From Deltaproteobacteria bacterium (GTDB lineage: Bacteria > UBA10199 > DSSB01 > JACPFA01), in assembly GCA_016183235.1 (NCBI GenBank), contig JACPFA010000016.1, positions 2,834 through 66,833 of the forward strand: a stretch of 64,000 bases of DNA. Direction: 5' to 3'. Made by a program: the position numbers and the translations under genes. The notes under the pieces are model-generated. The model searched no databases and was not told the origin of the DNA. It worked only from the letters and a program-made list of their open reading frames with translations. This document shows, piece after piece, positions 1 through 63,009 of this stretch. How positions within the stretch are numbered: position 1 is the first letter of the stretch; the number at the start of each line of letters is the position of its first letter.

Positions 1-537
1 TCTGCAACTTTGTCCCTTAATAATGGTGATGATCGCCAAGCAGAGATAGCCTACCGCGATGATGATCAAGAAGCAGTCGAACCTTACCTAGCCTATGGTA
101 GTGAAAACCCAAAATATTATTCCCCTAATCTTCTGTTTGGCATGGTTTCTTATTGGAGACCTCATTCAGGAGGGCACTCCTTATTTAACGGGATGGGGTT
201 CTCTGCTGCGCTGGGCTTTGCCAATTTAGATGGCTTAACTTTGGCAGCTGGCTTAGATTACAACCTTACCTCTCAACAAGAAATCTTGCCGACCCTTTCT
301 ACCTTTTACCAATTGAGTGATGACGTTTATTGGGAAAATAAATTTGGGATTGGCGTTGGGCTCCCTTTTTTGGACCCCCCCTACCCTACTGCAATGGGAT
401 CCTCAGGCTTGGGCGCTGAAATTGTGTTTGGAATAAAATTAAAAGGTGGGGTTCGGTTTAGTTTTCCCCTCGACGATCAACACCACAATGAAGATTACAT
501 CCCCAGTCTCTTTCTTGGAGTTGACTATTTTCTCTAA
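1..537 (+). CDS. hypothetical protein, 5'-truncated by the window edge; Gly/aromatic-rich C-terminal part, possibly an outer-membrane beta-barrel
   Basis: Frame 1 is open from base 1 (the listed ORF merely starts at TTG at 10). It ends GVDYFL*. Segments alternate hydrophobic and Gly-rich. Confidence 0.45.
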   Translation, partial: SATLSLNNGDDRQAEIAYRDDDQEAVEPYLAYGSENPKYYSPNLLFGMVSYWRPHSGGHSLFNGMGFSAALGFANLDGLTLAAGLDYNLTSQQEILPTLSTFYQLSDDVYWENKFGIGVGLPFLDPPYPTAMGSSGLGAEIVFGIKLKGGVRFSFPLDDQHHNEDYIPSLFLGVDYFL

Positions 538-566: not shown

Positions 567-583
567 GTATACAAAAAGTATAC
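567..583. promoter_or_regulatory. GTATAC-N5-GTATAC box, copy 1 (putative operator)
   Basis: Sequence is gtatac aaaaa gtatac, 83 bp upstream of the ATG at 666. TTGCAA at 555-560 plus 18 nt places the TATACA of the second hexamer as a -10-like element. Confidence 0.55.
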
Positions 584-665
584 ATAATTGCACCTTCTTT
601 AACTCCTTCAATCAATTCCTCATCACCGCTTAATCGATAATCAAGGCTTAGAAAGGAGATGTATT

Positions 666-962
666 ATGAAACATTTCATTATTAGCTTAGTATTAAGTAT
701 CTCGATTTTGGGTTTAGGGGCCTGTGGGGGAAGTAGTGCTGACCTCCCACCGCCAGAAGAGGAGGCCAAAGAAGCATTTCAGGCTGTCGCAACGCCTACG
801 GCTGTCGCAACGCCTACGGCTGTCATAACCCCTACACCAGAACCTTCACCTACTGCACTTCCAGATGGTGATTCCGATGGAATTCCGGATGCAGAAGATA
901 ACTTTCCTAATTGTAATGATTATGCGGCCTATTCGTGCTCGCAGAGGGTACGACAAGAATAA
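666..962 (+). CDS. small secreted lipoprotein with Pro/Thr linker and thrombospondin-type-3-like Ca-binding motif
   Basis: RBS aaaggag. Signal peptide with lipobox LGLGAC. Motif DGDSDGIPDAEDNFPNC. C-terminal C-x3-AY-x-C loop. Confidence 0.8.
   Translation: MKHFIISLVLSISILGLGACGGSSADLPPPEEEAKEAFQAVATPTAVATPTAVITPTPEPSPTALPDGDSDGIPDAEDNFPNCNDYAAYSCSQRVRQE
783..836 (+). repeat. in-frame 18-bp tandem repeat (2 perfect units plus 1 diverged) encoding AVATPT
   Basis: gctgtcgcaacgcctacg occurs twice, followed by gctgtcataacccctaca. Confidence 0.85.
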
Positions 963-1041: not shown

Positions 1042-1058
1042 GTATACCTTTGGTATAC
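1042..1058. promoter_or_regulatory. GTATAC-N5-GTATAC box, copy 2
   Basis: Sequence is gtatac ctttg gtatac, 101 bp upstream of the ATG at 1159. Confidence 0.55.
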
Positions 1059-1158
1059 GAAAACTTGGCGAGTCGGCATTATTCATGCGGCCAAAAATAA
1101 CTAAATCCCGATAAGGTTATTAGGACCAGCTAGTAACTTTAAATAAAGGGGTTTAGAT

Positions 1159-1518
1159 ATGAAGAACGTATTACTATTAAAGCTTGTCATGGTTGCCATG
1201 TTAATTTCGGGCGTAGTGGCTTGTGGAGATGCAGGCGACTCGGTTGATGTTGAGATTCCAAAGGCCCCTGTTGCCAGCACACCACCTGAGGTTACTGTTC
1301 CTACGCCACCGCCTACTGATGGGCCCATGACTCAAGAAGAAATGGTTGAATTTGTGGCTAGCTTGCCAAACGGTACCCTTGAAGCCCTGGCTGAATTAGG
1401 CAAGAGCAAGCAAAAGACGCGCCCTCCAGTGATTATTCAAATACCGGTGAAGCCCGTATGTCCAGAAGGAGAAATGCTCCCAGCCTATGATTGCACTTCT
1501 GCTACTATAGAAGAATAA
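1159..1518 (+). CDS. small secreted lipoprotein, paralog family (CPEG-x-LPAY-x-C loop)
   Basis: Signal peptide with lipobox SGVVAC. Pro-rich linker. C-terminal CPEGEMLPAYDC. Confidence 0.8.
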   Translation: MKNVLLLKLVMVAMLISGVVACGDAGDSVDVEIPKAPVASTPPEVTVPTPPPTDGPMTQEEMVEFVASLPNGTLEALAELGKSKQKTRPPVIIQIPVKPVCPEGEMLPAYDCTSATIEE

Positions 1519-1540
1519 AATAGGAATTAAAGGATTTTTT

Positions 1541-2020
1541 ATGAAAATTATCTCCGTGTTTACCAAGTTTTTATCGATTGTTTTATTATTATCAGGGTTC
1601 ATGGCTTGCGGAAGTTCAGACACCTTCATAGAAATTGTGATTCCAGAGGTTCCAGAGACTGAAACGACTGTATTTAATCCCAGTGAAGCGGCTGAAGAAG
1701 CACTCACTCCTGAACCTTCGCCTACGCCGTCTCCGAATGAAGAAGAAGAGCCTCTTGAGCGCTCTACTATTCCCGACTGCCCTGAAGGACCGCTACCTGC
1801 TTATAATTGTAAAACTGTCCACAAAGGGGGGAAGGACCCCAGCCGCACGCCTTCTGTCTCATTAGCCGCTGCTGCAAATACTACCTCCGTTGTTAAGGAA
1901 TATATGGCGGAACAATTGGCGAAATATCGTCTCGATGATTTAATATTCGATGATAATAACGCCGCACTGTCTGAGGCAACAACGCCTGAAATGGAACAAT
2001 TAGATTTAGAACTCAAGTAA
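1541..2020 (+). CDS. small secreted lipoprotein, paralog family (CPEG-LPAY-x-C loop)
   Basis: Signal peptide with lipobox SGFMAC. PEPSPTPSP linker. CPEGPLPAYNC. Confidence 0.8.
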   Translation: MKIISVFTKFLSIVLLLSGFMACGSSDTFIEIVIPEVPETETTVFNPSEAAEEALTPEPSPTPSPNEEEEPLERSTIPDCPEGPLPAYNCKTVHKGGKDPSRTPSVSLAAAANTTSVVKEYMAEQLAKYRLDDLIFDDNNAALSEATTPEMEQLDLELK

Positions 2021-2029: not shown

Positions 2030-2046
2030 GTATACGCGCAGTATAC
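2030..2046. promoter_or_regulatory. GTATAC-N5-GTATAC box, copy 3
   Basis: Sequence is gtatac gcgca gtatac, 115 bp upstream of the GTG at 2161. Confidence 0.55.
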
Positions 2047-2160
2047 AAAAACTCTGTTTTTTAAGGGCTCCCTAAAACTCTACCCCTTTCCAGAATCGAT
2101 AACAGCAATAAGGCACGGCAATACCATGGACCTATTGTTGGCCTTTCGAATGGGGTTTAT

Positions 2161-5100
2161 GTGGAATATGGATTGCGTGTACGGTTCAGTTTAGGCTTTT
2201 TTTTGATGCTCTGTCTTGGTTTACTTGGTTATTCCAAAGACCTTTACGCTTGTGCCGGTGTGTTTCCCAATTTTAACGAATGTTTGTGGGGCTTCGAAAA
2301 TAACGAAACAATTTCTCTTGTCACCCTTGAGGGCCCCGATGGCTCAAACCTTAGCCTAAAAGAAGGCTGGGTAGGCAAAGACATCCCTATGCTTACTTAT
2401 GCCAATCAACCGGAAAGTGCGGCAGGGGCTCAAGCTGCACGCATCCAATTTAAAAAAATTGCTAGCATCACAAGCACAAATAAAACGGGGCAAGCCTATG
2501 GGATTCGTCGCCAATTAAAAAGTGGAGAGTGGAATAAAATACAGGCCCTCAGCCTCCAATATAAAATAGGAAGCGATGAACCAACTTCTGCTTTGGTACC
2601 CCAAAATAATTTTGCCCCTTCTGATAAAGACATTTTTCAATTTTCGATTGTTTGCCAAGATGGAACGATCCAACCTCCCATCGGTATTGATGCCTTGTTT
2701 AATTGGAGTTTTACCAATAGCTATAAAAAAAGATGGCGCGATGATATAGCCAGCCTCAAGAAAAATATCCGTTGCTCGGGGGATCCTGAGCTGGGCCCTT
2801 ACACAGCGGACGCTCTCATTCTTTGGCTTGATATCCCAGAACCCATGACACTGTATTTAGACGATGTGCAAGGCATCTTTGATCAAGCCTTAAAATCACC
2901 TGCCGATTTTGCGATTGATCTGGGAGGCTCTTACACTGAGGCTTCGGCCTTTGCGGTTCTCAATTCTGTCGCCGATGAACTGCAACCAGCCCCTGAAGGA
3001 GCTATCATCAAGGCCTATGGTTGGGCAAAACCCCCTCAAGGTTCCATCAAATCTTTTGTTAACAATTATATAGGTGGCAATCATTATCCTTGGATCGTCG
3101 ACGCCGTGCAGGCAGATTTTATGCAATTTGTCCCTGCAAATTATTGGACAAACGCAGGCATGTCTCAAAAAGCCACCTTTCGGCTCGAATTACCTTATCA
3201 AAAACAATCAGAACAAAATTACACGGTTTTACTTCTCCTGATGGATACCGGTAATGCAAACGAATTAGGACGATCCCACTACATGGACCACAGCGAGTAT
3301 TATGCCAATTCGAGTGATGAAAATCCAGAAAAACGCCGCATTGAAATATTTCAAGAGGGCAACAAATTAACTTCTAAAAATGTTTCATCCCTTTGGAAAT
3401 CTGGCGGAAAACCAGACAAAGGCTGGCTAGAACAAATGATGTCAAAAGAACCCGATTATAATACAAATATCTTTGACTTTCATTTTGCTCACAAACGCCA
3501 ATGGGTTAGACTCGATTTTTCAATTAAAAAAGGAATTGGGAATCCCGAGGATGGCACAACGGTTGACATTGACCTAATGCCAGGAGTTTCTTTTCCGTTG
3601 GCTGCAATTTTTATTTTCAAAGACAAACAAACAGCCGATGATGACGAACTCACCCAACCGATCGAACAGTATTTTAAAATGTTTCAACCAAGTATCCCGC
3701 TAGTTTATTCACCCCCCTCCAAACAGGCATCGACACTAGCTCCGAAAAAGAATCTTGTGGTTTATCCTATTTCGGTTGGATCAGCGGTTGATCGATATGC
3801 TGCCCCGATCGATGAAGAAATCGAATGGGCCAATAACTTGGTTGATAACAAGTCTGCTCTCACTCTCAATGGTTTTGCTGGCGAGCGCGGGCAACTCGAA
3901 CTGAATATCTACGCTCAAACAGCAGTGAATGATCTTAGTATTACACTGTCAAACCTTGATGAACTTCCTCAACCCAAAATGGAAGGCGGACGTTATAGTA
4001 TTTATTCTGAGGGTCTTGGTAATCATGGTCTCAGCCCCTTCCTCATGAAAGTGCGCAGTTTTTTGCCGTTTAATGATTTCTCTTATTTTAAAATTCTTCA
4101 ATCCAAGCAAAACCGCCAAGTGTTATTGACCTGGGATTTTCCTAAACAGGTGAAAAGTGGAACTTACCAGGGAAATATCGTTATTAAAGGTGGTGGCACA
4201 ACTTTTTCTTACCCTCTGCAAATCAATATTTTGCCCTTTGCTTTAGAAACCCACTCGTTTGAGGGGCGTTTTTACAACGGAGACAATTATAAATCCTACA
4301 TTCACGAAATAAACCAACTCAATCAAATGAATTGTTTTTATACTCAAAGCAGTCACGCCAATATTTCGACCAACACCCCCGAACATAATTGTCAGATCGG
4401 CAGTAACTCCGTAACATTGGATGAAGCAAGAATTTCAGAAATTATCGATACAACAAAGCATCATTTTCGACGTGGTAACACGCCGATTTGGTTGACAAGC
4501 GTGGTTAATGATAAAAATCCTCAAGAAATTATTAACTGGGATCAGCCCCCCAATGCAAACATTGGAATAAAAAACCAAAGCCTCTGGTTTTATAATGACA
4601 TGGTTAACCCCAACATCCCACCGGCTTATTCGAATCAGGAAATACCGAGCTTTTTACCAAGCGACAATTCTCTCATCGTTCACCTTGACGCTCTCTATCA
4701 AACAGCCATGGTCTATGTGGCACGTAACAATAGTACTGGAAAGATTTGTAATAACGATTTTTTTGGCTCAGGTGTGGGAGACTTGCCTCCTTTAACGGAT
4801 AATTGTAGTTGGAAACTAGAACCGATGGGGGTTGGGGGCGGTATTTTCTTGGGCCCTAACGACTACCAAATCGTCTCTACTTTTTTACCCAAATGGATCC
4901 AAAACGTTACCCATTTTGTCAAAAAATATTGGAGCAATAAAGATATTTATTATGACTTTTGGGGCGAATTGGATAATGCGCAAAATCACCTTAACGATGT
5001 AGCGGAGTATAAAGAAGATTATTATTTAAGCGGAGTTCTTGATCTTGGGTGTCAATTTCGAGATTTCCTAAAAAAAGTCGACCCTCAGGCCAAAATCAGC

Positions 5101-6642
5101 TTACGCATCAATGGCCTGGTTGGTTTAGCCGTTGCCTGTAACTATTGCACGCCTGAAGGTAAGCCCGGGCATTACAAGCCCTTACCCTTTCCTATTGCAT
5201 CCTACAAAAACACCTCCCAAAATGGGCAAACGGTTAAAGAAAAATATTCCCCTGAACAGATGAAACAATTTTCTCAAGGAAACTTTTCTGCCATTGCGCA
5301 GGCATGTCTCAATAGTACGGATTCATCGCCAAAATTTAGGGTTTTTGCCAATCACGCGATGATTAAAAAATTTGAATACCAAGGCAAAGCGATAACCCCT
5401 ATTGAATTATTGTATCAAAGTAGTCGGGAAGTCGGCTTTTACAATCATGGCTATGGAAGATTTGGGCATGGGTTCTATGCCATGGGGGTTGCTTACAAAC
5501 TTTTACAAGACAATAAACAAGAAATCTCTGCCCAGGCAATGGCCTCTACGATTAAGATTGCACAAGAACATTACGCAAAAGAAGTGGGGGAATGTATTAA
5601 TGAACTCGATGGGGACTCGGGTCGTACAACACCCGCGCAAGCCTGCCCCAGTGGCATTGTTTCTACACCAGGGTGGGAGGGCATGTACCAAGGCATGTCC
5701 GATGCTCACCATGTGATTACACTATTCGATTTACTATCAAAGGCTGAAACGAAGCTTGACGCAGCATTGCCCACAACCCTTCGTGGAGAGCTTGACGCCA
5801 TACTTTCCCAAATACCCATAGCAGATGTCAAAGCACTACCTCCTGAGGCTATTGGTGAAATGGCGGGCTGGGATGGCCCCCAAATGGATAAGGTGCGGCT
5901 TTATTTAGCAAACTATATTTTAAAGATAAAAATCCTGCTGGGGGATTTTGAAAAACAAAATTTATCAGATTTCGATGGCGATGGTATTTTAACGGAAAAT
6001 GATAATTGCCCCCTCATGGCTAACCACAACCAGGCCGATGAAGATATGAATGGAATTGGGGATGCCTGCCAGTACACTGCCATTGTACCTAAAATGCCAC
6101 CTAAACCAGAAACTATAGGTGAAATTACAAAACCACCTTCTTATGAGTTGACGCTCGACGTTATAAAATCATATGCGAATTTCTATGAACAACTTAATTT
6201 CAACAAACACGCTGCTCAAAAACCAAATTGCCCCCCTGAAACTGTTTTAGTGGGCGACCTATGTTTCAAATTCCCTACTACGTCAAACTCAAATGACAAT
6301 GAACCTCTGGAGTCGAATAACAATGAATCTCCGGGGAATGAACCTAACGATTGTGCTATGGAGCTTGAGTCATGTGATAACATCGACAACAATTGTAATG
6401 GTCTGGTTGACGAAAATTGCGATTGCTCGAGCGGAGACGAACAACTGTGCATTCTTCCCCTTGAAGAATACAAACCTGGGATTCAACAATGCATTGATAA
6501 GCAATGGAGCACTCATTGTGAAATGACCGACGATGACAAAGCTAACAATGGAATTATTTTCAAAGATGAGCAGGACAAAGCCGAACCACTGCATGACTCT
6601 CCAAGCATAATGGGCGGTGGTTGTTCACTCCACAAAGGATGA
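2161..6642 (+). CDS. giant secreted protein (1493 aa) with thrombospondin-type-3 repeat, Cys-rich CxxCxxC-type motif and a tail-less GGGCSL C-terminus
   Basis: GTG start. N-terminal signal and possible lipobox (LYAC). Motifs DFDGDGILTENDNCPLMANHNQADEDMNGIGDAC and CDNIDNNCNGLVDENCDC. The first ~1250 aa have no motif I recognise. Confidence 0.85.
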   Translation: MEYGLRVRFSLGFFLMLCLGLLGYSKDLYACAGVFPNFNECLWGFENNETISLVTLEGPDGSNLSLKEGWVGKDIPMLTYANQPESAAGAQAARIQFKKIASITSTNKTGQAYGIRRQLKSGEWNKIQALSLQYKIGSDEPTSALVPQNNFAPSDKDIFQFSIVCQDGTIQPPIGIDALFNWSFTNSYKKRWRDDIASLKKNIRCSGDPELGPYTADALILWLDIPEPMTLYLDDVQGIFDQALKSPADFAIDLGGSYTEASAFAVLNSVADELQPAPEGAIIKAYGWAKPPQGSIKSFVNNYIGGNHYPWIVDAVQADFMQFVPANYWTNAGMSQKATFRLELPYQKQSEQNYTVLLLLMDTGNANELGRSHYMDHSEYYANSSDENPEKRRIEIFQEGNKLTSKNVSSLWKSGGKPDKGWLEQMMSKEPDYNTNIFDFHFAHKRQWVRLDFSIKKGIGNPEDGTTVDIDLMPGVSFPLAAIFIFKDKQTADDDELTQPIEQYFKMFQPSIPLVYSPPSKQASTLAPKKNLVVYPISVGSAVDRYAAPIDEEIEWANNLVDNKSALTLNGFAGERGQLELNIYAQTAVNDLSITLSNLDELPQPKMEGGRYSIYSEGLGNHGLSPFLMKVRSFLPFNDFSYFKILQSKQNRQVLLTWDFPKQVKSGTYQGNIVIKGGGTTFSYPLQINILPFALETHSFEGRFYNGDNYKSYIHEINQLNQMNCFYTQSSHANISTNTPEHNCQIGSNSVTLDEARISEIIDTTKHHFRRGNTPIWLTSVVNDKNPQEIINWDQPPNANIGIKNQSLWFYNDMVNPNIPPAYSNQEIPSFLPSDNSLIVHLDALYQTAMVYVARNNSTGKICNNDFFGSGVGDLPPLTDNCSWKLEPMGVGGGIFLGPNDYQIVSTFLPKWIQNVTHFVKKYWSNKDIYYDFWGELDNAQNHLNDVAEYKEDYYLSGVLDLGCQFRDFLKKVDPQAKISLRINGLVGLAVACNYCTPEGKPGHYKPLPFPIASYKNTSQNGQTVKEKYSPEQMKQFSQGNFSAIAQACLNSTDSSPKFRVFANHAMIKKFEYQGKAITPIELLYQSSREVGFYNHGYGRFGHGFYAMGVAYKLLQDNKQEISAQAMASTIKIAQEHYAKEVGECINELDGDSGRTTPAQACPSGIVSTPGWEGMYQGMSDAHHVITLFDLLSKAETKLDAALPTTLRGELDAILSQIPIADVKALPPEAIGEMAGWDGPQMDKVRLYLANYILKIKILLGDFEKQNLSDFDGDGILTENDNCPLMANHNQADEDMNGIGDACQYTAIVPKMPPKPETIGEITKPPSYELTLDVIKSYANFYEQLNFNKHAAQKPNCPPETVLVGDLCFKFPTTSNSNDNEPLESNNNESPGNEPNDCAMELESCDNIDNNCNGLVDENCDCSSGDEQLCILPLEEYKPGIQQCIDKQWSTHCEMTDDDKANNGIIFKDEQDKAEPLHDSPSIMGGGCSLHKG

Positions 6643-9441: not shown

Positions 9442-9942
9442 ATGTTAACTATGCCTCGACCTAAACGAATTTTAATTCCGAATGCTTATTATTATATCTC
9501 TAATGAGAGCAAGGGGAAGAGATCTGCCTTTAGCTCTGCTACCGACAAAAAATATTTTACCGACCTCCTTCATGAGATCGCCAAAGAGTTCAAACTAAAA
9601 GTTTTAGAATATAGTTTGACCCGCCAGGGCTATCATTTGTTGATCCAGATGCACGGGAAAAACCTTCCCCTGGCTTTGCGTTCGCTTAATGGTATCTATA
9701 CCCAAGATTACAATCGAAAGTACCAAAAGAAAGGGTCTTTGTTCAAAGGGCGTTACAAATCGGTGCTTATGAGTGAGAGGCCCTATGTTACACAGATTGC
9801 AAATTATATCCGTAGTTTTGCCAAAAAATCTTTGCTTTCCAAGGTGAGTGAAGACGTTTTGCAAAGGCTCAACCCTAAAAAATGGCCTAGTGTTTTGGGG
9901 AGTGAAAAGTTTTTGAAGAAGATGAAGAAGAAGACGAGATAA
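9442..9942 (+). CDS. REP-associated tyrosine transposase (RAYT, IS200-like Y1 family), probably degenerate
   Basis: By-eye alignment to the COG1943/RAYT pattern: PRPKRI..., LNGIYTQDYNRKYQKKGSLFKGRYKS, ANYI (Tyr kept). The HUH position reads G-Y-H instead of H-x-H, and the usual NPVRA tail is missing. The start may be the ATG at 9451. Confidence 0.75.
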   Translation: MLTMPRPKRILIPNAYYYISNESKGKRSAFSSATDKKYFTDLLHEIAKEFKLKVLEYSLTRQGYHLLIQMHGKNLPLALRSLNGIYTQDYNRKYQKKGSLFKGRYKSVLMSERPYVTQIANYIRSFAKKSLLSKVSEDVLQRLNPKKWPSVLGSEKFLKKMKKKTR

Positions 9943-24048: not shown

Positions 24049-27000
24049 GTGATGCAACGTTACACCCCGAAACCCGGGAGCTTATTCCCCTTCATCCTCA
24101 TCGCTCTGCTTGCCCTCAGTTATTTTGGATTAATACCATCCACGGCGTTAGGACAAGCACTAACCACACGTCAGGCACCGGCACCTATTCACAGTAATTT
24201 TTGCCCGGCTTACACTCAATCAGATTTATACCGGCCTCGTTTACAGCAAGTCACGGTGGGACCGCAAGACAATTGGATTAGCGCCATTCGCGGTGCACTC
24301 CCTGGCACGGAAATTTTGTTGCAAGATGGGGATTATTTTTTGGGCAGCACTTACACAGTCACCATTCCTGAAGAAGTAACCGTGCGTTCGGCCAGCGGGA
24401 ATCGCAATGCCGTAACTATTATTGGCCAGGGTTACGGGCCGGGGGCAGAGGCTTTAATGGTTACGGGCAAAAATGTAACCGTGGCCGATCTTTCGATCAC
24501 TCAGGTGCGCAACCATGGGATTGCCATCAAGGGCGAATCAGGGGCTCACGGAACTCATATTTACAATGTCAATCTCTATGACATTGGAACGCAAATGATC
24601 AAAGGGACCAAAGGCCCGCAAGATGCGGTCATCGCGTGTTCGGCAATGGGTTACAGCGCCAATGGCGTGCGAGGAGATTATATCGCCGCCATCGATGTTC
24701 ATGGGCCTCAAGATTTATTGATTCGCGACAATTACATTTACAACTTCATGGGAGAAGGCACGGGCTGTGAAGTTGATATTGATTGTGGCGCTTACATGTC
24801 GCAACACCCCGCCATCTTAATTTGGAACGAAGGGGCACGTGGCACCATTATTGAACGCAACGTGATGATCGAAAATTATCGTAGCATTGCCCTTGGCCTC
24901 GACCGAGGCCATGAAGATGGGATTGTTCGAAACAATTTTATTTTTCGTTCTCAGCCTGGTGATGCAGGGATCGAATTGCGCACGGCTAACAACACCTTGG
25001 TTGCCCACAATACCGTGTATGTTGAAAATTATATTGGCGCCATCGAGCTAAGCCCTGGGACCAACAATCGAATTTACAATAATTTTATCAGCGCCTATTT
25101 CCGGACACGCGATGGGGCCACGTTTACCGAAGATGGGAATTTATTTGATTTAGAACCTGGTGATTTGCTCCAGGCAGGCGATTCGCATCTGCTCGACAAT
25201 TCCCGCGCCATTGGCGCCGGAGTTTCGCTGCCCGACATTTTAACTTATGTTACTGACGACATCGATGGTGATTTGCGCGATGGGCGCTATGACATAGGTG
25301 CTGACCAATTTGTTGAAATAGCCCCACCACCCGAGCCCTTGTTTAGCCAAGCTATTCCCATCACCCAAATTATCGCCAAGACGAGCGAAAACCAAGGCAC
25401 GCGCCATGTGTTTAACGCCAAGAATGAACTTTCTTATTTTGACTTCACTCCTCCTCAAGACGGCTGGTATCGATTCCAAGTTAATTTGGGGGCTAATGCA
25501 CTTACCACTAAGTATTGGTTTGCTCTTCAAACGAACAATATTGTGGATGGAAGGATTATCCAATCTCAAAACGTTGATTCGATTGAAGCCAAAAATTATG
25601 ATTTTTACCGTCATTTAACGGCTGGGAAAAAGACCCGGGTTAATCTTATTTCCGGCACCCGCAATGGAATGGAGCATTATCTCTATGGGGTGAATATTCA
25701 AGAGACTCATGCCTTTGATGAAACCCCGCCTGAAACGACACTTAATATTGTGCGCTATGAAACAAAATTGACGTTTAAAATTAGCACCAACGAACCTCAT
25801 ACAATTTTATTTTACCTCAATGGTGCGTTAAAATCATCCAATCACACCTTAACCACTTCACGTAAATTTACCTTTACGGGCTTAACCCGTTCAACAATTT
25901 ACACTTACAAAATTATTACTAAAGATGCGTTTGGGAATGCTGACACGACTGAAGGCGAAGTAAACACCTTGCCCGATCCACTACCACCACCTCCACCACC
26001 TGAACCTACGCCGACTCCAACGCCCGTGCCTCCTCCACCGCCACCGCCTGCGCCCACACCGACACCTGTGCCACCGCCGCCTGCACCCACACCTACGCCC
26101 GTACCTCCTCCTGCGCCGACACCAACACCTGTACCACCGCCCCCCGTACCCACACCTACGCCCGTACCTCCACCGCCTGCACCTACACCGACACCACAAC
26201 CGGTGCCTAATCCAACACCTCCCGCACCCACTCCAACGCCTGTACCACCTCCACCGGTTGACGACAGCATTGATGTACCGCTCACCGTGCACTTCCCCAG
26301 TGGGGCCAATGAATCGGTCCCTGTCACCGTGGGAGTGCCTGTGCCACTCGATGCAACCGGGCCCTTCACCGTGGTGAACACAAACAACGTCGCCGTGCCC
26401 ACCCAAGTGCGTGAACAAACCCGCTCTAGCCATCAATGGTTATTGGTCGATTTCCAAGCCGAACCTAATCAAAGTTATCGCCTCAAAAAAGGCAACAGCC
26501 CGGCCGGAAATTACCAAATGAATGTCATCAACCAGGGTAGTGCTGGAATCACAGTCAACACCGGAGTCACCGAATTTAAATTACCGGCCGATACCCGATT
26601 GTTTGAACAAGTGCGTGATGCCAATGGCAATGCATTGATCGATCAAGCCGGCTTTGGTGCCAACGTAAGCCCTGCTCTCTTGGAAATCGCCGAAAATGGC
26701 CCCTTGCACACCATGGTTAAAGTCACGGCACCTCGTGCCATTCAAGGGCTTGACCTGGTGGCGAGGCTGCATTTTTACGCTGGCAAATCTTATTCCCGCG
26801 TCAGAATCACTTTGGTGAACCACAACAACTGCACGTGGAGTAGTGGTCAGCCGCGTTGTAATAATATTGGCGATACTGGCACGATTTCTTTTGAAGATGT
26901 TTCTTGGTCGCTCACGGTGCATAACCCAGAGGCCAGTCGTAACGAAGTGCTTTATCAAGATTCAAGCGGAACCAATGGTTGGAACTACTACCAAGGCCGA

Positions 27001-30000
27001 AACCCACGGATGCAAGGAGGGGTTAGCTTCCGTGGTTACCGCCGTTATGTGAATGGTGCCGTGGCCGAATCGGGAGATGCAGCACCTGGCACCTTAAGTT
27101 TTGGCGGCATTCAAATGGAAGTGCCTTATTTTCGCGAAATGTTCCCCAAGGCCTTGCGTGCCCAAAATGGCCTGTTGTCTTTTGCTATCTTCCCCACCGA
27201 GTTCCGGCCCAATAACTCAAGCACCTCGCACGCGATGCGACCGGGCGAACAAACCACCGTGGACGTGTGGGTCAATACCGGGAATAACCGTTCCCCTGGC
27301 AACATGGTACTGGCCTATCCCAGCCTGTCTTACTTACGCAGCACCCATGCCTTGGGCTTTGTCGGCCCACGGGTGGATGGGCAATTCTCGGATTATGAAA
27401 GCTATATCGATGCCCAATACGATTTCAGCAAGGCCAAAATTACCGGCCCCAATAATTGCCTTAATGCAGAATGTACCATCACCGGTGCCATCAATCGCTT
27501 TGATCACTATGGTTGGACCGACTTTGGCGACATCCCGCAAGACTTTGAACAAGGCAGTGCACCTTACAATTTAAAATACGATGTGAGTTTGGGCTTTATC
27601 TATCAGTGTATTCGTACCGGCAGCCCCTTCTATTGTCGCGATGCCGTAACTTCAAACCTACACTTTGCTAACGTTGACATCATGCACTCCACGGTACGCG
27701 GCTATAACAACCCCAACCGCGATTGGATGGTGGGTGGTTCTTGGGGTCATAGTCTGCACGATGAATCGGGCATCTCGAACCCCCATCGCAACAATAACAA
27801 CCCACACCCTGACACCACCTGGGGTGGAGCCGGGCTCTCGGCCTTTGCACTCTTGACCGGCGACGACATGGTGCGCGATGCAAGCCTAGAACTTGCCGAC
27901 AACATTCTATGGCGAGCTCAAAATTCTAACGACACGGGTTGTGATGGACAAGCTTGGGGCGGCGGGAGCGACAATGGTTACGCCATCCTCGGCACCAATC
28001 CACGAGCCGCGGGGAATATCGGTCGCTTACTCAATTGGGCCTTTAAACTCACCGGCGATATCAATTATTTGAACGGCGCCGCGGGCACTTCCCGTTGGGT
28101 GCAATGTGAACGCGCCAACCTCACCTGCGGAAGTTGGGGCGTTGCCCTTTCGGCCCGCGCTATTGGTGAATACATCATCACGACTCGCGATGCCGGAATT
28201 AGCGAAGACCCCAATGCCATTCCTGCCATGAACACCTTGCTTAATTCCATGGCCAGCAACACCACCCGAAGCGGTGACCGAGCTTGGTTTGGCGCTTGCA
28301 CTGGCACCCAGGAAATCAATAACTGGATGGTTCTGGCCGCTGATGCCTTTAGTTTGGGTTATGCTGTGACCGGCAATCAAACTTGGCTAGACGACTATGC
28401 TCGCCCCAGTTTCAACACTGGCCAAACCGATCCTTTCTATAATAACGACTCGTTACACTACCACAGCACCAAAGAATTGGTGAACTCGGTAGGCGCAGGC
28501 ACGACTTTCTTGCACTTTGCCAACAACGGTCAACCCGTGCCAGACCCTGTTCCAACGCCACCACCCCCTGTGCCTACACCAACACCTGTGCCACCACCGC
28601 CGCCTGCACCCACACCAACACCTGTGCCACCACCTCCAGCTCCAACGCCCACTCCTACGCCGGTGCCTCCTCCACCCGCACCCACTCCACAACCTGGGCC
28701 ATTCCAAGTAAGTTTAAGCGATATCGAAGACACCTATTTGAGTGGCATCGACTGGACCTACATTCCCGAAACAGTCGGCAACTTTGGTAATGACGATATC
28801 ATTTATCTCTACAACGTAAACTACGCCAGTTCACAAATCCGGATCGGGCTCATTAAGATGAATCTAACTCCGATCGACTCACAAAATCAGATCGATCGCG
28901 CCATCTTGCATCTTCCTGTGGTCAGCGGCAACCCCACACAGCTTAAAGCCTACGAAGTTACGGCTAATTGGAAAGAAGGCACCTGCGTCAATCAATATGA
29001 ATGCACGGCCGATGGTACCACCTGGATTTCTCGTGGCCCAGGCTATGGTAATTGGGCAACAGCGGGCGGTGATTTCAACGCCGCCACGGCAGTGAATGGC
29101 CAACTCAGCAACGGAGAAGTGTTGTTTGACATCACGAATAGTGTCAACAAATGGGTGCAAAACCCCAACACAAACTTTGGTTTAACTTTGCGGGATAGCA
29201 ATGCATGGGAAGAAATCAGTCTAGGGTCTTCAGAAAATGGCACTTTGTCATTACGACCCTATCTCGTAGTGCAAGGAAATGGCAGTGGAAGCACACCACC
29301 ACCCGCACCGACGCCTGTACCAACTCCCACACCTACACCTGTGCCACCTCCACCACCACCTCCTGCACCCACACCCACGCCAACACCGACGCCCGTGCCA
29401 CCACCGCCTCCGCCGCCTCCGCCCCCACCTACACCACAACCTGAACCGGTGGATTTCAATCCAGAAAACGAGCGAGTCATCACGCCTACCACCAACAACG
29501 TTAATCTAGCCCAGCCCGCCAATCTGCAAGTGTTCCATCGTTCCGGTCAAACCTTCCTCACTTGGAACGAAAATACCGGCATCAGCGGAGAACGCTACAT
29601 TGTATATCGTCACACCGCACCGATCAACAGCAGCAATCTCAGTAGCGCCATCCCCATTGCCATCGTCAAAGAAGGTTCGAGTTATTATCGCATTGAAGCC
29701 GTGCGCTCGGGCAGCCGGCAATCCCGTTATATGATTCAAGATCTAGGGACCCAGCTGAGTAACACCACAGGTCTCTTTGTTTACACCACCAAACAAAATG
29801 GCGATTTTTACTACGCTGTAACCACGGCCAATGCCACTTCAGAAAATAAATCCGCCTTGGGTTCGACTAACAGCGTAAGTGCCACTATAAGTGAAACGGT
29901 GGCTGACCCTCAGCCCGTCTTAGTGTGGCGTGGTGCTGGCCTTTCCGGCAATACAACCTTATGCGGTTTGGTTTACACGCAATTTATGGATTATCATAAT

Positions 30001-31272
30001 TGGAACCCCACCTTCCATGGTTATGCCTACAATTATTCGGTCACTCTACCTTCTTGTAACTACCAACCCGACGCTCAAAATCCCTTGTCAGTCGCGCTCT
30101 ACATCGAAGGCAAGAACAGCCGCTATACCAACAGTGTCTATTACGCCATGAACAACAGTATTTATATCAGTGCCGAATCCGCTTGTTCGATTCCAGATTA
30201 TGGCTGCGATAGTGAACAAGATTGGTATTGGGGATTTAGTTGTAAACACAATTTTAATGGCCCGCTTGCCGAAGGTGCCAGTACTAATCAATTTAATTAC
30301 AATGTCACCCCAGGCCCGGTTTGCAATTACACCGAATTGCGAATTTTGCGCGCTGTGAAAGACACCCTACGACAATGGGCGGGCGATCCAAAACGCGTCT
30401 ATGTTTACGGCCACTCCATGGGTGGTTCAGGCGCCATCACCCTTGCCATGCACTATCCAAAAATCTTCTCCATCGTCTATGCTAGCGAAGCCATGACCGA
30501 TTACGGTAATTCTGGGAATTGGCTTGGAGAACTAACCCGCTTTTGGGGATCCCCCAACGACTCAAGAAACACCGTACGTAACTTAGGCATTCGTTGGCTC
30601 GATGGCACCATGACCAACGAACACTTAAAGCAATTCAATGACCGTATGAATGTGTTTACCTTCATGGATCACCAAGCCCTCGCCTCCGATCCTGATTACA
30701 TGGATGAAGACAATGGATTTATCATTGCGGTTCATGGCACCAACGACAATGTGATCCCAGCGGCCACCCAAGGCTATGGCTTCTACGAAGAAATGAACCA
30801 AGGCCACCGCGGTTTCATTGGCATGGTAAACAGCGACGACCACATCTCGCAAATCGCCATGGGTTGGAACCCCAGCACCCCCATCAACTTTAGAAAATTG
30901 GTAGGCTATTATGATGGCCAAGAGCACTTCTATAACCAAAGTTACCCGGCTCTCTCCAACATCTCAGGCACAAATTATGCGGTAACCTCGGGCACGGCCA
31001 ATTACAATCGCAATGTTTATTGGGATCAATACACAGTGGTTGATCAAGTCGATCGTTACGAGATCACCTTGCAAGGCCTTTCGGGCGCAGTCACCGCCGA
31101 CGTCACCCCACGCCGCTTACAAGACTTTAGCCCCCAAGCCGGCGAAGTCTTGCAATGGCAAAATCTGCAAAGTGGGGAACAAGGCCTAATTACGGTTGAC
31201 CCCTTCGGCCTAATCACAATCCCTCAAATGAGAATCGTGTCTGGCAACAACCGATTGGTGATTACGAGGTGA
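24049..31272 (+). CDS. giant secreted multidomain enzyme (2407 aa): beta-helix domain, FN3-like module, large unassigned central domain, DNRLRE-like module and C-terminal alpha/beta-hydrolase (esterase), joined by three PT-rich linkers
   Basis: Signal peptide. Beta-helix repeats (NVTVADLSI, NNFIF, HNTVYV, NNFIS). Nucleophile elbow VYVYGHSMGGSGA. Pro/Thr linkers. The DNRLRE-like call (LIKMNL...AILHLPV...FGLTLRD) is tentative. Confidence 0.85.
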   Translation: MMQRYTPKPGSLFPFILIALLALSYFGLIPSTALGQALTTRQAPAPIHSNFCPAYTQSDLYRPRLQQVTVGPQDNWISAIRGALPGTEILLQDGDYFLGSTYTVTIPEEVTVRSASGNRNAVTIIGQGYGPGAEALMVTGKNVTVADLSITQVRNHGIAIKGESGAHGTHIYNVNLYDIGTQMIKGTKGPQDAVIACSAMGYSANGVRGDYIAAIDVHGPQDLLIRDNYIYNFMGEGTGCEVDIDCGAYMSQHPAILIWNEGARGTIIERNVMIENYRSIALGLDRGHEDGIVRNNFIFRSQPGDAGIELRTANNTLVAHNTVYVENYIGAIELSPGTNNRIYNNFISAYFRTRDGATFTEDGNLFDLEPGDLLQAGDSHLLDNSRAIGAGVSLPDILTYVTDDIDGDLRDGRYDIGADQFVEIAPPPEPLFSQAIPITQIIAKTSENQGTRHVFNAKNELSYFDFTPPQDGWYRFQVNLGANALTTKYWFALQTNNIVDGRIIQSQNVDSIEAKNYDFYRHLTAGKKTRVNLISGTRNGMEHYLYGVNIQETHAFDETPPETTLNIVRYETKLTFKISTNEPHTILFYLNGALKSSNHTLTTSRKFTFTGLTRSTIYTYKIITKDAFGNADTTEGEVNTLPDPLPPPPPPEPTPTPTPVPPPPPPPAPTPTPVPPPPAPTPTPVPPPAPTPTPVPPPPVPTPTPVPPPPAPTPTPQPVPNPTPPAPTPTPVPPPPVDDSIDVPLTVHFPSGANESVPVTVGVPVPLDATGPFTVVNTNNVAVPTQVREQTRSSHQWLLVDFQAEPNQSYRLKKGNSPAGNYQMNVINQGSAGITVNTGVTEFKLPADTRLFEQVRDANGNALIDQAGFGANVSPALLEIAENGPLHTMVKVTAPRAIQGLDLVARLHFYAGKSYSRVRITLVNHNNCTWSSGQPRCNNIGDTGTISFEDVSWSLTVHNPEASRNEVLYQDSSGTNGWNYYQGRNPRMQGGVSFRGYRRYVNGAVAESGDAAPGTLSFGGIQMEVPYFREMFPKALRAQNGLLSFAIFPTEFRPNNSSTSHAMRPGEQTTVDVWVNTGNNRSPGNMVLAYPSLSYLRSTHALGFVGPRVDGQFSDYESYIDAQYDFSKAKITGPNNCLNAECTITGAINRFDHYGWTDFGDIPQDFEQGSAPYNLKYDVSLGFIYQCIRTGSPFYCRDAVTSNLHFANVDIMHSTVRGYNNPNRDWMVGGSWGHSLHDESGISNPHRNNNNPHPDTTWGGAGLSAFALLTGDDMVRDASLELADNILWRAQNSNDTGCDGQAWGGGSDNGYAILGTNPRAAGNIGRLLNWAFKLTGDINYLNGAAGTSRWVQCERANLTCGSWGVALSARAIGEYIITTRDAGISEDPNAIPAMNTLLNSMASNTTRSGDRAWFGACTGTQEINNWMVLAADAFSLGYAVTGNQTWLDDYARPSFNTGQTDPFYNNDSLHYHSTKELVNSVGAGTTFLHFANNGQPVPDPVPTPPPPVPTPTPVPPPPPAPTPTPVPPPPAPTPTPTPVPPPPAPTPQPGPFQVSLSDIEDTYLSGIDWTYIPETVGNFGNDDIIYLYNVNYASSQIRIGLIKMNLTPIDSQNQIDRAILHLPVVSGNPTQLKAYEVTANWKEGTCVNQYECTADGTTWISRGPGYGNWATAGGDFNAATAVNGQLSNGEVLFDITNSVNKWVQNPNTNFGLTLRDSNAWEEISLGSSENGTLSLRPYLVVQGNGSGSTPPPAPTPVPTPTPTPVPPPPPPPAPTPTPTPTPVPPPPPPPPPPPTPQPEPVDFNPENERVITPTTNNVNLAQPANLQVFHRSGQTFLTWNENTGISGERYIVYRHTAPINSSNLSSAIPIAIVKEGSSYYRIEAVRSGSRQSRYMIQDLGTQLSNTTGLFVYTTKQNGDFYYAVTTANATSENKSALGSTNSVSATISETVADPQPVLVWRGAGLSGNTTLCGLVYTQFMDYHNWNPTFHGYAYNYSVTLPSCNYQPDAQNPLSVALYIEGKNSRYTNSVYYAMNNSIYISAESACSIPDYGCDSEQDWYWGFSCKHNFNGPLAEGASTNQFNYNVTPGPVCNYTELRILRAVKDTLRQWAGDPKRVYVYGHSMGGSGAITLAMHYPKIFSIVYASEAMTDYGNSGNWLGELTRFWGSPNDSRNTVRNLGIRWLDGTMTNEHLKQFNDRMNVFTFMDHQALASDPDYMDEDNGFIIAVHGTNDNVIPAATQGYGFYEEMNQGHRGFIGMVNSDDHISQIAMGWNPSTPINFRKLVGYYDGQEHFYNQSYPALSNISGTNYAVTSGTANYNRNVYWDQYTVVDQVDRYEITLQGLSGAVTADVTPRRLQDFSPQAGEVLQWQNLQSGEQGLITVDPFGLITIPQMRIVSGNNRLVITR
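25972..26257 (+). repeat. PT-rich linker 1 (low-complexity coding repeat, PTPTPVPPPP(A/V) units)
   Basis: Read from the sequence. It generates spurious Gly/Arg/Trp-rich antisense ORFs. Confidence 0.9.
28534..28700 (+). repeat. PT-rich linker 2
   Basis: PVPDPVPTPPPPVPTPTPVPPPPPAPTPTPVPPPPAPTPTPTPVPPPPAPTPQPGP. Confidence 0.9.
29293..29447 (+). repeat. PT-rich linker 3
   Basis: TPPPAPTPVPTPTPTPVPPPPPPPAPTPTPTPTPVPPPPPPPPPPPTPQPEP. Confidence 0.9.
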
Positions 31273-47404: not shown

Positions 47405-47465
47405 TCATATCATATGCTTTATTAAGTCATATTATATGCTTATATATTGACATTCTTGATGTCTT

Positions 47466-47723
47466 ATGATTTACATGGAATATATGAGGAGAACAACGTT
47501 ACTATTAGATGACTCGCTTTATAAAAAGGTAAAAACCATAGGGAAATTGCGGGGCACTAGTTTAAAAGAAATTATTAACGATCTCCTACGAAGCGCGCTT
47601 AATTCCACGGTTGAAGAAAAAACAACTCACCTGCCAATCCCTTTACATCGTAAAAATGGGCCCCAAGAAGGCATTGATATTTCTGATCGAAGTAGCCTTT
47701 ACGATATTCTCGATCATGAATAA
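47466..47723 (+). CDS. vapB: VapB-type antitoxin (DUF2191-like)
   Basis: MRRTTLLLDDSLYKKVK pattern, abutting the PIN gene. The start may be the ATG at 47484. Confidence 0.75.
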   Translation: MIYMEYMRRTTLLLDDSLYKKVKTIGKLRGTSLKEIINDLLRSALNSTVEEKTTHLPIPLHRKNGPQEGIDISDRSSLYDILDHE

Positions 47724-47738
47724 TTGAGGGGGTACTCT

Positions 47739-60743: not shown

Positions 60744-61133
60744 TCGGTGAGGCTAGGATCGTAACACTGATAAAGGTCACTTTTCCGAGTACCTCCTGTA
60801 TCAATCCATTTAAACAACATCTCAATGGGGATGTCTCGAAATACCAATTTGTCTTCAATCGTATAGTTCCCATTAGTAACCTCTTGATCCAGCACCCTCG
60901 CAGCCTGGAGAACCTGCACTCCAACTTGATCCCATGTATTTGCCGCCAAGGTTCCATCGAGATGATAAAGACGATTGCACAGTATAAATCTGACCTTGAA
61001 GGACCTTTTGTAAATCTTTAAGCGACTTTGCAAAGTCAACCATCTCGGGAAAGGCGTGTATTGCCCCTATATGTAAACCTTGTGTAGGTTGGTTAAAAGT
61101 CACACCATAAGTTTGTTGATTGTCTATCAACAC
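60740..61133 (-). pseudogene. small gene apparently split by a frameshift near 60965-60985 (or two heavily overlapping ORFs)
   Basis: ORF 61133..60873 is protein-like only up to ...GQIYTVQ. ORF 61039..60740 is protein-like only from ...RLYHLDGTL onward. Joined, they give ~130 aa. Confidence 0.4.
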
Positions 61134-61146: not shown

Positions 61147-62673
61147 TCACAAAATATCTATTTCACTTGGCCTTGAAACTTCTTCAAACACTGGCACTAA
61201 AAATAGCACCATTCCACGGCTCACCCCGCTGCCCAATGTAGTAGCGGCTTCGGGGGCGGCTTGAATTATTTTATAACCTACTGCCACTGCTGCAGAAAAA
61301 ACAAGCCCAAAGACTGTACCTTTCACAGTGGGCTCTTGGTACCATGGCTGTGATTCAGTGACCGTAGTGACCGTTGGGTTGGAGGGGGCTCCCCTAGATT
61401 GCTCATTGGGTTGATCATGCCGACCATAGGCCGCTAATATTAGTACCACCTCATCGACATCGGCATTTATGATAGCAGCTCGGTGCAAGATGTCGTTTGT
61501 ACTGATTCTGTCACCAATCCATCGGTGGATCAATCGATCGATCGGTTCAACGCACATAGACGATGTATTGCTAGATCCACGCGATCTACTACGGGCTGCT
61601 CGTGGAAAACGACCACGAGGCTCCGATCTTACAGAAGTAGTGGGGGGACCCTTTGTGTCGTCATCGTTGTCATCTTTATTTCTGTTAAAAATCCACTTGA
61701 ATAAACGAACAAACCATAACCGATCCATTTGCTCAGTCAAAGCGGAAGGGCCAAAAAGCGTCAATGTTCTAACCAAGGCGTAGAGATCATGGCCAAGAGC
61801 CACCCCAGGACCAAACACGCCGGTTAAAAACAATCCCCCTTTGATGATGTTTTTAAAAGAAAATTCTTCACCCTTCAGTTCAACAGCAACGATATGCAGG
61901 GCATTTTCTAATTGATCCAGTTTAAAATTTTGACCATCCTTTGGAAGATTTTCACCACCCTTTAAGTGGTTAATGACTATAGTGATCTCTGTTCGAAGTT
62001 CATAAATACGCGTTGGATCTGCAGCAACATAATAGGTTGAACCGTTTTTGCTTTGCCTAAAATATTGATTGTTAGAATCACCCACCATCACCCGAAACAA
62101 AGCAATCAATTCCTCATTAAGGGGAAAACTAATGGGACGCCAATTATCAGGATCGTATTCAAGTAACAAAGGCGGTGGTTTTGCTAAATACTTGGCAACC
62201 ACCGTTTGTTTTTGTTCTTCAGTGAGTGGGTTCCCTGCATCATCGACCAATGGCCAATTTTCTAATTTGGTAAGATTGGTAAGATCTGGGGTTGGGGGTT
62301 GTCTCTCAGGGGGATGAAACCTAAAGGGAATGTCCGTTAATGGAGATAGGTCAGGTGGGGAAAGGCCAAGACCTGCTTTTAATCCTTTAAGCTGTCTAGC
62401 TACCTCATCTACTTTTCCCTCGGGCGCCCACAAAACTACATAACCCTGGTCCCATCGATAGCACAGCCCCAAGGCCTGCAAGCCCTTCCCTTGAAATAAT
62501 CTAGCGTAACCTCCATCTTGAGAACTATAAACTGTATGACCACCGTTGGCACCATCATTTTCAAAAGAAATGTTGTCTAATTTTTGATACCCTCTTAATG
62601 GCCCATTTTCACAAGACGGATAGAGATTTTGCAATGGATTGTCAGACGAATCATTTCGAATAGGTACATTCAT
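61147..62673 (-). CDS. hypothetical protein (508 aa) with internal hydrophobic hairpin(s) and a charged low-complexity segment
   Basis: No signal peptide. GGLFLTGVFGPGVALGHDLYALVRTLTLFGP, NRNKDDNDDDTKG...RGRFPRAARSRSRGSS, and the C-terminal hydrophobic GTVFGLVFSAAVAVGYKII / GMVLFLVPVF. Confidence 0.7.
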   Translation of the reverse strand: MNVPIRNDSSDNPLQNLYPSCENGPLRGYQKLDNISFENDGANGGHTVYSSQDGGYARLFQGKGLQALGLCYRWDQGYVVLWAPEGKVDEVARQLKGLKAGLGLSPPDLSPLTDIPFRFHPPERQPPTPDLTNLTKLENWPLVDDAGNPLTEEQKQTVVAKYLAKPPPLLLEYDPDNWRPISFPLNEELIALFRVMVGDSNNQYFRQSKNGSTYYVAADPTRIYELRTEITIVINHLKGGENLPKDGQNFKLDQLENALHIVAVELKGEEFSFKNIIKGGLFLTGVFGPGVALGHDLYALVRTLTLFGPSALTEQMDRLWFVRLFKWIFNRNKDDNDDDTKGPPTTSVRSEPRGRFPRAARSRSRGSSNTSSMCVEPIDRLIHRWIGDRISTNDILHRAAIINADVDEVVLILAAYGRHDQPNEQSRGAPSNPTVTTVTESQPWYQEPTVKGTVFGLVFSAAVAVGYKIIQAAPEAATTLGSGVSRGMVLFLVPVFEEVSRPSEIDIL

Positions 62674-62753
62674 AATTGGCTTTCACCCCCGAGCCATCTC
62701 ATCGGGATTATTTTTGCCTCATTGCTATCAATTGACGAGTACTGAAGAAAAAA

Positions 62754-62770
62754 GTATACATCTAGTATAC
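62754..62770. promoter_or_regulatory. GTATAC-N5-GTATAC box, copy 4
   Basis: Sequence is gtatac atcta gtatac, in the divergent intergenic region. It is 81 bp from the ATG at 62673 (minus strand) and 240 bp from the ATG at 63010 (plus strand). Confidence 0.55.
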
Positions 62771-63009
62771 AGCACAGTCATGCAAGCAATGATGGGAGAG
62801 GAACATTAAACTTTATTATTTTAATGGGTTAACTTTTCTCGGGCGTGAGAGTTCTCATGAGAATCCTTAGCTGCGAGGGCTTTTTTTGAACTTCAAAGTT
62901 TCTTCAAAAAAATAAGCAACTTATTTTAAGAGGCCTCGAGGGAACCGGCTCTATCTGTCGGGGAAGTTTGGGTATCTCCCAATTGTAATATTGATTCAAG
63001 GAGCTACCC

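Follow-up and report, generated by a model that had tools for sequence, protein, structure and literature searches.

Genes and Boxes of the Locus

The window analyzed in this study, i.e., the whole stretch of 64,000 nt, revealed a box of the form GTATAC-N5-GTATAC (box 4) in a 336-bp gap between a minus-strand gene for a protein of 508 aa (ATG at 62673) and a divergent plus-strand ORF starting at 63010, which confirmed the location given in a preliminary description of this DNA. The box is separated from the ATG at 62673 by 80 nt and reads GTATACTAGATGTATAC towards the 508-aa gene; the plus-strand ORF was called as a gene for 549 aa on Logan contig L081. Logan contigs from several groundwater runs were found to be 100% identical to the window and added 2.7 kb on its left (L083) and 5.5 kb on its right side (L081). 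In regard to the deduced 508-aa protein, no Pfam or NCBIfam family was detected, and among 5.8 billion proteins it matched only itself (identical to NCBI HYU97_03905); hydrophobic segments were recognized by eye in the translation of this membrane-type orphan. The 86-aa ORF behind it, which revealed no family match, probably belongs to the same operon (Table 1). In the part of the gap on the side of the 549-aa gene (62840–62890), we noted a perfect palindrome (TTCTCATGAGAA) as well as GC-rich sequence running into a stretch of Ts (gagggcttttttt); the fold of this region was not superior to shuffled controls (z = 0.19).

Altogether, four exact matches to GTATAC-N5-GTATAC were identified in the window (567, 1042, 2030, and 62754), three of them about 60 kb away from box 4 in front of genes for secreted proteins, just as previously noted. 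The designation of box 4 as the fourth is right for exact copies in the window, but the count was too low, as a fifth box with one mismatch (GTATACCGATGGTATGC) lies on L083, 2.7 kb left of the window. This box is preceded by a strong terminator, and its end is located 102 nt upstream of the ATG of a gene for a protein of 750 aa.

Several counts indicated that the boxes do not originate from chance. In 100 dinucleotide-preserving shuffles of the window, the expectation for an exact box was 0.00, and a search of the window for variants with one or two mismatches yielded none beyond the four exact copies (0.93 expected with up to two mismatches). The window contains nine GTATAC hexamers, and only one of them lies outside the four boxes. 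All four boxes are located in intergenic sequence, which makes up only 7.1% of the window (P = 2.6e-5). A control of 1.18 Mb from 80 unrelated genomes contained no exact box and three boxes with one mismatch, none of which was followed by CGATAA. Based on the shuffles, the mismatch scan, the intergenic location, and the unrelated genomes, a chance origin was excluded, and the box is real far beyond chance expectation. A literature search retrieved no paper with the term "GTATAC-N5-GTATAC".

Regarding the genes behind the boxes, the two lipoprotein genes of 119 and 159 aa probably form one operon. The 1493-aa protein matched only itself, and the 750-aa protein is without a known family, with one homologue found (75% identical). 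In relatives of this bacterium, further genes preceded by a box encode a PD40 beta-propeller lipoprotein and a protein whose gene is cut after seven codons at the end of contig L162. A signal peptide was evident only in the lipoproteins and the giant 1493-aa protein. The boxes precede lipoprotein, secreted, and orphan genes, and the earlier label of cell-surface or orphan proteins for the targets is reasonable. One signature joins unannotated genes without homologues, namely those for three lipoproteins and for the 1493-aa, 750-aa, and 508-aa proteins, which are presumably co-expressed.

Table 1. Boxes, downstream elements, related octamers, and genes of the locus. Positions refer to the window unless a contig is given.
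Feature	Position	Strand	Description
Box 1	567..583	+	GTATAC-AAAAA-GTATAC
Box 2	1042..1058	+	GTATAC-CTTTG-GTATAC; downstream of terminator-like hairpin of preceding gene
Box 3	2030..2046	+	GTATAC-GCGCA-GTATAC
Box 4	62754..62770	-	GTATAC-ATCTA-GTATAC (GTATACATCTAGTATAC); upstream element of promoter module
Fifth box	L083 888-904		GTATACCGATGGTATGC; one mismatch
Downstream element, module B0 (750-aa gene)	L083 954-961		Octamer CTCGATAA; outside window
CGATAA, module B1 (98-aa lipoprotein)	635..640	+	ATCGATAA; 51 nt after box 1, 25 nt before ATG 666
CGATAA, module B2 (119-aa and 159-aa lipoproteins)	1109..1114	+	CCCGATAA; 50 nt after box 2, 44 nt before ATG 1159
CGATAA, module B3 (1493-aa protein)	2097..2102	+	ATCGATAA; 50 nt after box 3
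CGATGA, module B4 (508-aa orphan)	62699..62704	-	CCCGATGA including two preceding bases; 49 nt after box 4, 25 nt before ATG
Perfect octamer GCCGATAA	48281-48288		Before HEAT/thioredoxin gene (48310)
Perfect octamer GCCGATAA	57935-57942		Before uncharacterized 255-aa gene (57976)
Perfect sigma-28-type -10 octamer	19548-19555		
CCGATAT	35491		
750-aa gene, C-terminal part	10..537	+	Own box and CTCGATAA on L083, outside window
98-aa lipoprotein gene	666..962	+	Signal peptide ending LGAC
119-aa and 159-aa lipoprotein genes	1159..2020	+	22 nt apart; no box between them
1493-aa orphan gene	2161..6642	+	Hydrophobic N-terminus, thrombospondin type 3 repeat, weak MopE-like motif
86-aa ORF	60873..61133	-	Starts 13 nt past 508-aa gene; called as gene on Logan contigs
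508-aa orphan gene	61147..62673	-	Presumed target of box 4

A Second Element at a Fixed Distance

The five modules of this genome (four in the window and one on L083) were ascertained by the box alone, without reference to any other motif. When the five promoter regions were aligned on the box, CGAT(A/G)A was the sole other element that aligned, and in all five modules it was located 49–51 nt past the box on the strand of the downstream gene and 31–64 nt before its start codon. As the sites had been chosen by the box alone and CGATAA is infrequent (40 copies in the window, both strands together), this coincidence is not due to chance. Neither the stretches between box and CGATAA nor the flanking sequences resemble each other from module to module. 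This excluded recent duplication of a single promoter and indicates that both elements, as well as the distance between them, are under selection. A leader peptide ending at the TAA or TGA within CGAT(A/G)A was also considered and rejected, since no consistent in-frame start was present and the open frames ranged from 2 to 63 codons. The box belongs to a larger promoter module, which the preliminary description could not see.

For box 4, this module runs on the minus strand from the box (62770–62754) via CGATGA (62704–62699) to the ATG at 62673. On the plus-strand side of the box, no CGAT(A/G)A element was found, which indicates that box 4 serves the 508-aa gene and not the 549-aa gene. With the same architecture at all sites, the proposed link between the two distant loci as one cis-regulatory class was borne out.

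Conservation in Related Genomes

The lineage is poorly sampled, since the best match of its queuine tRNA-ribosyltransferase (TGT) among 185,579 species genomes (GTDB representatives) was only 60% identical, so that neither this species nor close relatives of it are included in that set. A scan of metagenomes with the composite pattern GTATACN5GTATAC-N{48,52}-CGATAA resulted in 88 loci, mostly single hits in unrelated organisms with spacings spread over 48–52, so that most of them are what chance predicts. Close relatives were represented by only four contigs, all from JGI sample Ga0209211, of which L120 carries the orthologue of the promoter of the first lipoprotein gene and L138 that of the giant 1493-aa gene. 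The other two, L106 and L162, revealed two more box promoters, one of them before the gene for the PD40 lipoprotein; as the search pattern required CGATAA, they lend no independent support to the spacing. In addition, orthologues of three box promoters were identified on contigs L174 and L175 from ENA groundwater assemblies, which belong to the 75%-identical homologue of the 750-aa protein.

Comparison of the three orthologous promoter sets (L120, L138, L174, and L175) showed no variation in 36 hexamer columns and 18 CGATAA columns, while 3 of 15 columns of the N5 and 34 of 152 columns of the spacer varied (0/54 versus 37/167; Fisher P = 1e-5), a test that spans limited divergence, since the genomes compared are closely related (the 750-aa proteins share 75% of their amino acids, and DNA identity is 83–94%). 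Between orthologous promoters, the N5 changed from AAAAA to AAAAG and from GCGCA to ATGCA with the hexamers unchanged, and even the mismatch hexamer GTATGC in the box of the 750-aa gene was kept. Thus, within this limited divergence, the box is conserved at orthologous promoters where flanking bases change, a check that had been suggested before. In all three sets, homology across genomes starts 4–8 nt upstream of the box and the neighbors further upstream differ; terminators or REP elements abut the box. Consequently, a conserved promoter could not be accommodated upstream of the box.

The neighborhood of the box promoters is a hotspot of gene turnover. On L138 (584–4774) and L174 (1530–2986), an AlbA_2-HATPase_c_4-wHTH gene and an AbiEi/AbiEii toxin-antitoxin system are inserted beside box promoters, and the genome of the window has other genes at these sites. 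Furthermore, one box promoter plus signal peptide (MKHFIISLVLSISI...) heads a 332-aa Recep_L-domain protein on L174 (364–1460) and the 98-aa lipoprotein in the window (567–962), so that the coding sequence following this conserved promoter and leader was replaced or truncated. Box-like sequences were also observed on L118, L128, and L142. Those on L128 (2026 and 4489) and L142 (60 and 153), which stem from another metagenome organism with 38–41% GC in JGI sample Ga0315293, are paired GTATAC-N5-GTATAC-like boxes, some of them GGTATACC, in repeated intergenic sequence.

The Downstream Element as a Putative Sigma-28-like Promoter

The consensus of sigma-28 (FliA) promoters is TAAAGTTT-N11-GCCGATAA (PMC2859248), and in the open complex at Pseudomonas fliC the -10 element was assigned to (-15)GCCGATAA(-8), with GC as extended -10 (PMC12784957). 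For Bdellovibrio, a FliA promoter of the form TTAAG-N16-CCGATA was described (PMC3627812). CGAT(A/G)A matches the CGATAA core of the sigma-28 -10 element GCCGATAA; the GC extension is mostly missing, and the base preceding CGA, which is C in the consensus, is T in four of the seven modules compared. A sigma-28 -35 element (TAAA, or TTAAG) is absent at the required distance, where the modules read TACT, AATT, CGGC, AACT, and GCAA. By our own reading of the sequences, an A is found at the predicted transcription start in five of seven modules, and the position of CGATAA predicts 5' UTRs of about 18–51 nt that contain the ribosome-binding sites. Housekeeping promoters of the type TTGACA-17-TACAAT exist elsewhere in the window, which argues against CGATAA as a housekeeping -10 element; a textbook sigma-70 example was observed at 19582–19719 (minus-strand reading), upstream of a 1500-aa gene starting at 19581, so that the housekeeping promoters of this bacterium look conventional. 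Altogether, CGAT(A/G)A could represent the -10 element of a sigma-28-like promoter without a -35. Genes for FliA or flagella were found neither in about 72 kb of this genome nor in the roughly 36 kb of relatives examined.

Perfect GCCGATAA octamers without a GTATAC box also precede the start codons at 48310 (by 22 nt) and 57976 (by 34 nt), and further matches are listed in Table 1. In both the box-4 module and the site at 57935, TAGCAA is found 16 nt upstream of CCGAT.

If the C of CGATAA is set to -13 according to the predicted start, the box extends from about -81 to -65 with its center at -71 to -73, a position that depends on reading CGATAA as -10. Class-I activator sites are centered near -61.5, -71.5, -82.5, or -92.5, i.e., on the DNA face of the polymerase. 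Among known systems, the E. coli promoters aer and trg, which are sigma-28 promoters activated by CRP, combine a sigma-28-type -10 with a dyad-symmetric site at a fixed upstream distance and depend on a bound factor (PMC2859248), as may likewise be proposed here by analogy. Unlike here, however, the CRP site is centered at -49.5 and a TAAA -35 is present, whereas the box is predicted at about -72, TAAA is absent, and the motif is GTATAC-N5-GTATAC. In the attack-phase regulon of Bdellovibrio bacteriovorus, FliA drives genes for cell-surface proteins, and a CCGATA-type -10 precedes non-flagellar, cell-surface, and uncharacterized genes of this deltaproteobacterium-like organism (PMC3627812), similar to the modules described here; these differ by lacking a TTAAG-like -35 and by an additional upstream box, as none was reported there. 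If the sigma-28 reading is right, the modules would be a rare case of factor-dependent activation at an alternative-sigma promoter and, after Bdellovibrio, another example of surface proteins, instead of flagella, being expressed from a FliA-type promoter.

The Box as a Putative Protein-Binding Site

Each GTATAC hexamer is a complete 6-bp palindrome, the two hexamers of a box are centered 11 bp apart, which is about one helical turn, and 13 of 14 hexamers in the seven modules are exact. Since the half-site of an ordinary inverted repeat would be palindromic only at a chance of 1 in 64, this suggests that each hexamer is the full site of one dimer, so that two dimers would sit on the same face of the DNA. 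A protein with two DNA-reading elements close together would fit, and a winged helix of the GntR/FadR type and a ribbon-helix-helix (RHH) protein are each documented to recognize GTATAC.

Short self-palindromic units about one helical turn apart are known from MetJ metboxes, Arc/Mnt half-sites, and the Nur box (TTGCAA-N5-TTGCAA), the latter sharing the hexamer-N5-hexamer geometry; the sequences of all of these differ from the GTATAC box. MetJ, Arc/Mnt, and Nur act as repressors at the core promoter, and GntR and RHH proteins are mostly repressors. Other known sites were compared and rejected. An NtcA site (GTA-N8-TAC) does not match, as the outer GTA and TAC of the box are 11 and not 8 nt apart, and a BldD box (TNAC-N5-GTNA) does not match, as the inner tetramers are ATAC and GTAT. 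Sigma-54 promoters (-24 GG/-12 GC, TGGCAC-N5-TTGC) have the same geometry, but GG and GC are absent from the box, and GG-N10-GC is absent between box 1 and the start codon.

With respect to the hexamer itself, single GTATAC sites are bound by a dimer of DipR (GntR/FadR), a repressor (PMC11472048), and by a dimer of the RHH antitoxin CcdA, likewise a repressor (PMC5389731). By analogy, both may serve as leads to the kind of protein rather than as identifications. In the DipR operators, which occur at several promoters of a single regulon, 5'-GTATAC-3' is the essential core recognized by a dimeric winged-helix protein; unlike in our case, the hexamers are single, overlap the promoters (-12 to -35 and +1 to -22), and mediate repression in dipicolinate catabolism (PMC11472048), whereas here they are paired at 11-bp spacing far upstream in another context and without a GntR gene nearby. 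In the ccd operator of the F plasmid, GTATAC hexamers are each bound by one CcdA dimer, several sites cooperatively, but this serves toxin-antitoxin autoregulation at a 113-bp operator with low specificity (PMC5389731), in contrast to the highly specific pairs before unrelated surface-protein genes found here. A CcdA-like toxin-antitoxin operator was rejected, since the boxes precede lipoprotein and orphan genes and not a toxin-antitoxin operon. The window does harbor a toxin-antitoxin pair at 47466–48176, consisting of a VapB-like protein (weak NikR/RHH match) and a PIN protein; upstream of this RHH antitoxin, a different direct repeat (CATATnATATGCTT) occurs twice at 47405–47465.

In agreement with the preliminary description, which saw no obvious cognate regulator adjacent to the box, searches with Pfam and NCBIfam over about 72 kb of this genome (the window with its small gap ORFs and the flanks L081 and L083) and about 36 kb of relatives (L106, L138, and L162) revealed no regulator gene near the boxes and no GntR-family gene. 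The AlbA_2-wHTH and AbiEi genes beside a box in relatives were rejected as regulator candidates, as they are inserted defense-type genes absent from this genome.

Proposed Mechanism and Alternative Explanations

Based on these results, we consider the box to be a transcription-factor site that defines a regulon, with a probability of roughly 85%. It would be a protein-bound cis-regulatory site and form the upstream border of the conserved promoter module, which has the layout GTATAC-N5-GTATAC, 49–51 nt, CGAT(A/G)A, 25–58 nt, start codon. Activation rather than repression is suggested by the far-upstream position, the spacing kept within 1 bp, and the poor core promoter, so that the bound factor may activate in a class-I-type manner by contacting RNA polymerase. 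The complete picture, drawn from sequence features, in which two dimers of an activator bind at about -72 of a sigma-28-like core promoter, seems to us evenly poised between right and wrong. The regulon would be small. Its members are lipoproteins restricted to the lineage, orphan proteins, and a giant secreted protein, all encoded by the MAG of an uncultured groundwater "Deltaproteobacteria bacterium".

A more far-reaching version is clearly more tentative. Here, a dedicated activator with two dimers at about -72 would switch on sigma-28-like promoters without a -35, and box, promoter, and signal peptide would form a portable unit before fast-evolving, lineage-specific surface genes for lipoproteins and orphan proteins. 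Portability is supported by the one promoter and signal peptide that head a 98-aa and a 332-aa protein in two genomes. If true, this would be a self-contained "surface-proteome switch" and a class of activator-dependent alternative-sigma promoters not described before.

A regulon operator as such is of a familiar kind, though new in its sequence and lineage and with a less common architecture. For a lineage known from metagenomes only, 17 bp, a fixed distance of 49–51 nt, and CGATAA provide a concrete regulon signature, and searching the entire MAG together with related bins for this composite pattern should retrieve the whole regulon and may reveal its regulator by autoregulation or co-occurrence.

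Among the alternatives, the one that survives best, though still unlikely, is a repressor operator overlapping the promoter. In this case, the proximal hexamer (TATACN) would be the -10 element of a sigma-70 promoter, the bound protein would block RNA polymerase, and CGATAA would lie in the 5' UTR at about +45. The known GTATAC binders DipR and CcdA do repress, and the reading of TATACT as a good -10 hexamer put forward in the preliminary description fits box 4, where a scan found ATGACT-17-TATACT (9/12); at box 1, TTGCAA-18-TATACA was seen by eye. This reading does not hold in general, however. The would-be -10 elsewhere is TATACA, TATACG, or TATGCG without the last T of TATAAT, a usable -35 is missing in five of seven modules, and no sigma-70-like promoter was called before the plus-strand genes of boxes 1–3. 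Nor could a -35 in that place be conserved or shared, with homology starting only 4–8 nt before the box, and CGATAA at its fixed distance would be left unexplained. CGAT(A/G)A is the better conserved promoter-like element, and the proximal hexamer was rejected as a general sigma-70 -10.

The site might also act as RNA, which we regard as improbable. In this case, the transcripts would begin with, or carry close to their 5' end, a GUAUAC-N5-GUAUAC hairpin that is the target of an RNA-binding protein or stabilizes the mRNA. Every box can indeed be folded into a hairpin of 6–8 bp (-5 to -10 kcal/mol, z = -1.3 to -4.1), and the GTATGC mismatch in the box of the 750-aa gene would be a U.G wobble on the sense strand. 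These hairpins are weak, though, and the stems are identical at seven independent sites without compensatory change, which points to recognition of the sequence and not of the structure. Moreover, the region upstream of the box offers neither space nor conserved sequence to accommodate a promoter, and no Rfam match was obtained in the window at the gathering threshold.

Even less probable is a role of the box as a recombination or insertion site at the border of a gene cassette that moves or recombines. The abrupt start of similarity just upstream of the box in the three promoter sets and the different neighborhoods of box-plus-gene units in relatives would be compatible with this, but a promoter traveling with its gene gives the same pattern of breakpoints, and the fixed spacing to a -10-like motif and to the start codon is the behavior of a promoter. 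In addition, no recombinase linked to the boxes and no matching element at the 3' end were found, and to our knowledge the box is unlike integron attC core sites.

Finally, GTATAC as the target of a methyltransferase or restriction-modification system, in the sense of an epigenetic switch or a remnant of purged sites, is the least probable explanation. In its favor, isolated copies are rare (one in the 64-kb window and one in 27 kb of a relative, with about six per 64 kb expected from dinucleotide shuffles). However, the Markov expectation is only 4.2 per window, and depletion is more pronounced for other palindromes such as GAGCTC and GACGTC. Genes for a methyltransferase or restriction enzyme were not observed, and pairing, fixed spacing, and promoter position are not explained by methylation alone.

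Further Repeats and Genes of the Window

Apart from the boxes, the window revealed several families of short palindromic repeats. About eight copies of REP-like palindromes (GTCATTGCGAG ... GAAGCAATCT) were located at 9364–9398, 9979, 8063, 13410–13488, 34088–34145, and 60434–60498. The copies at 9364–9398 and 9979 flank an ORF for an IS200-like Y1 transposase (9442..9942, Pfam PF01797), so that the family and this ORF look like a REP-associated tyrosine transposase with its REPs. A second palindromic repeat (GACGGAGGTACGATTTT...) was found in intergenic regions at 31351–31371, 34219, and 35214 and adjoins box promoters in relatives (L106 at about 1580–1650 and L162 at about 13650). A third, GC-rich short palindromic repeat (GTCATCCCGG / ATCCCGGG) occurs at 8642, 12648–12690, and 14961–14985, in several upstream regions including that of glnA. 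Furthermore, an MNT/HEPN nucleotidyltransferase pair was identified at 34273–35144. In regard to base composition, the GC content at 26000–30000, which lies inside a gene for 2407 aa (24049..31272), reached 53–54% with a strongly negative GC skew, compared to 38–49% in the rest of the window.
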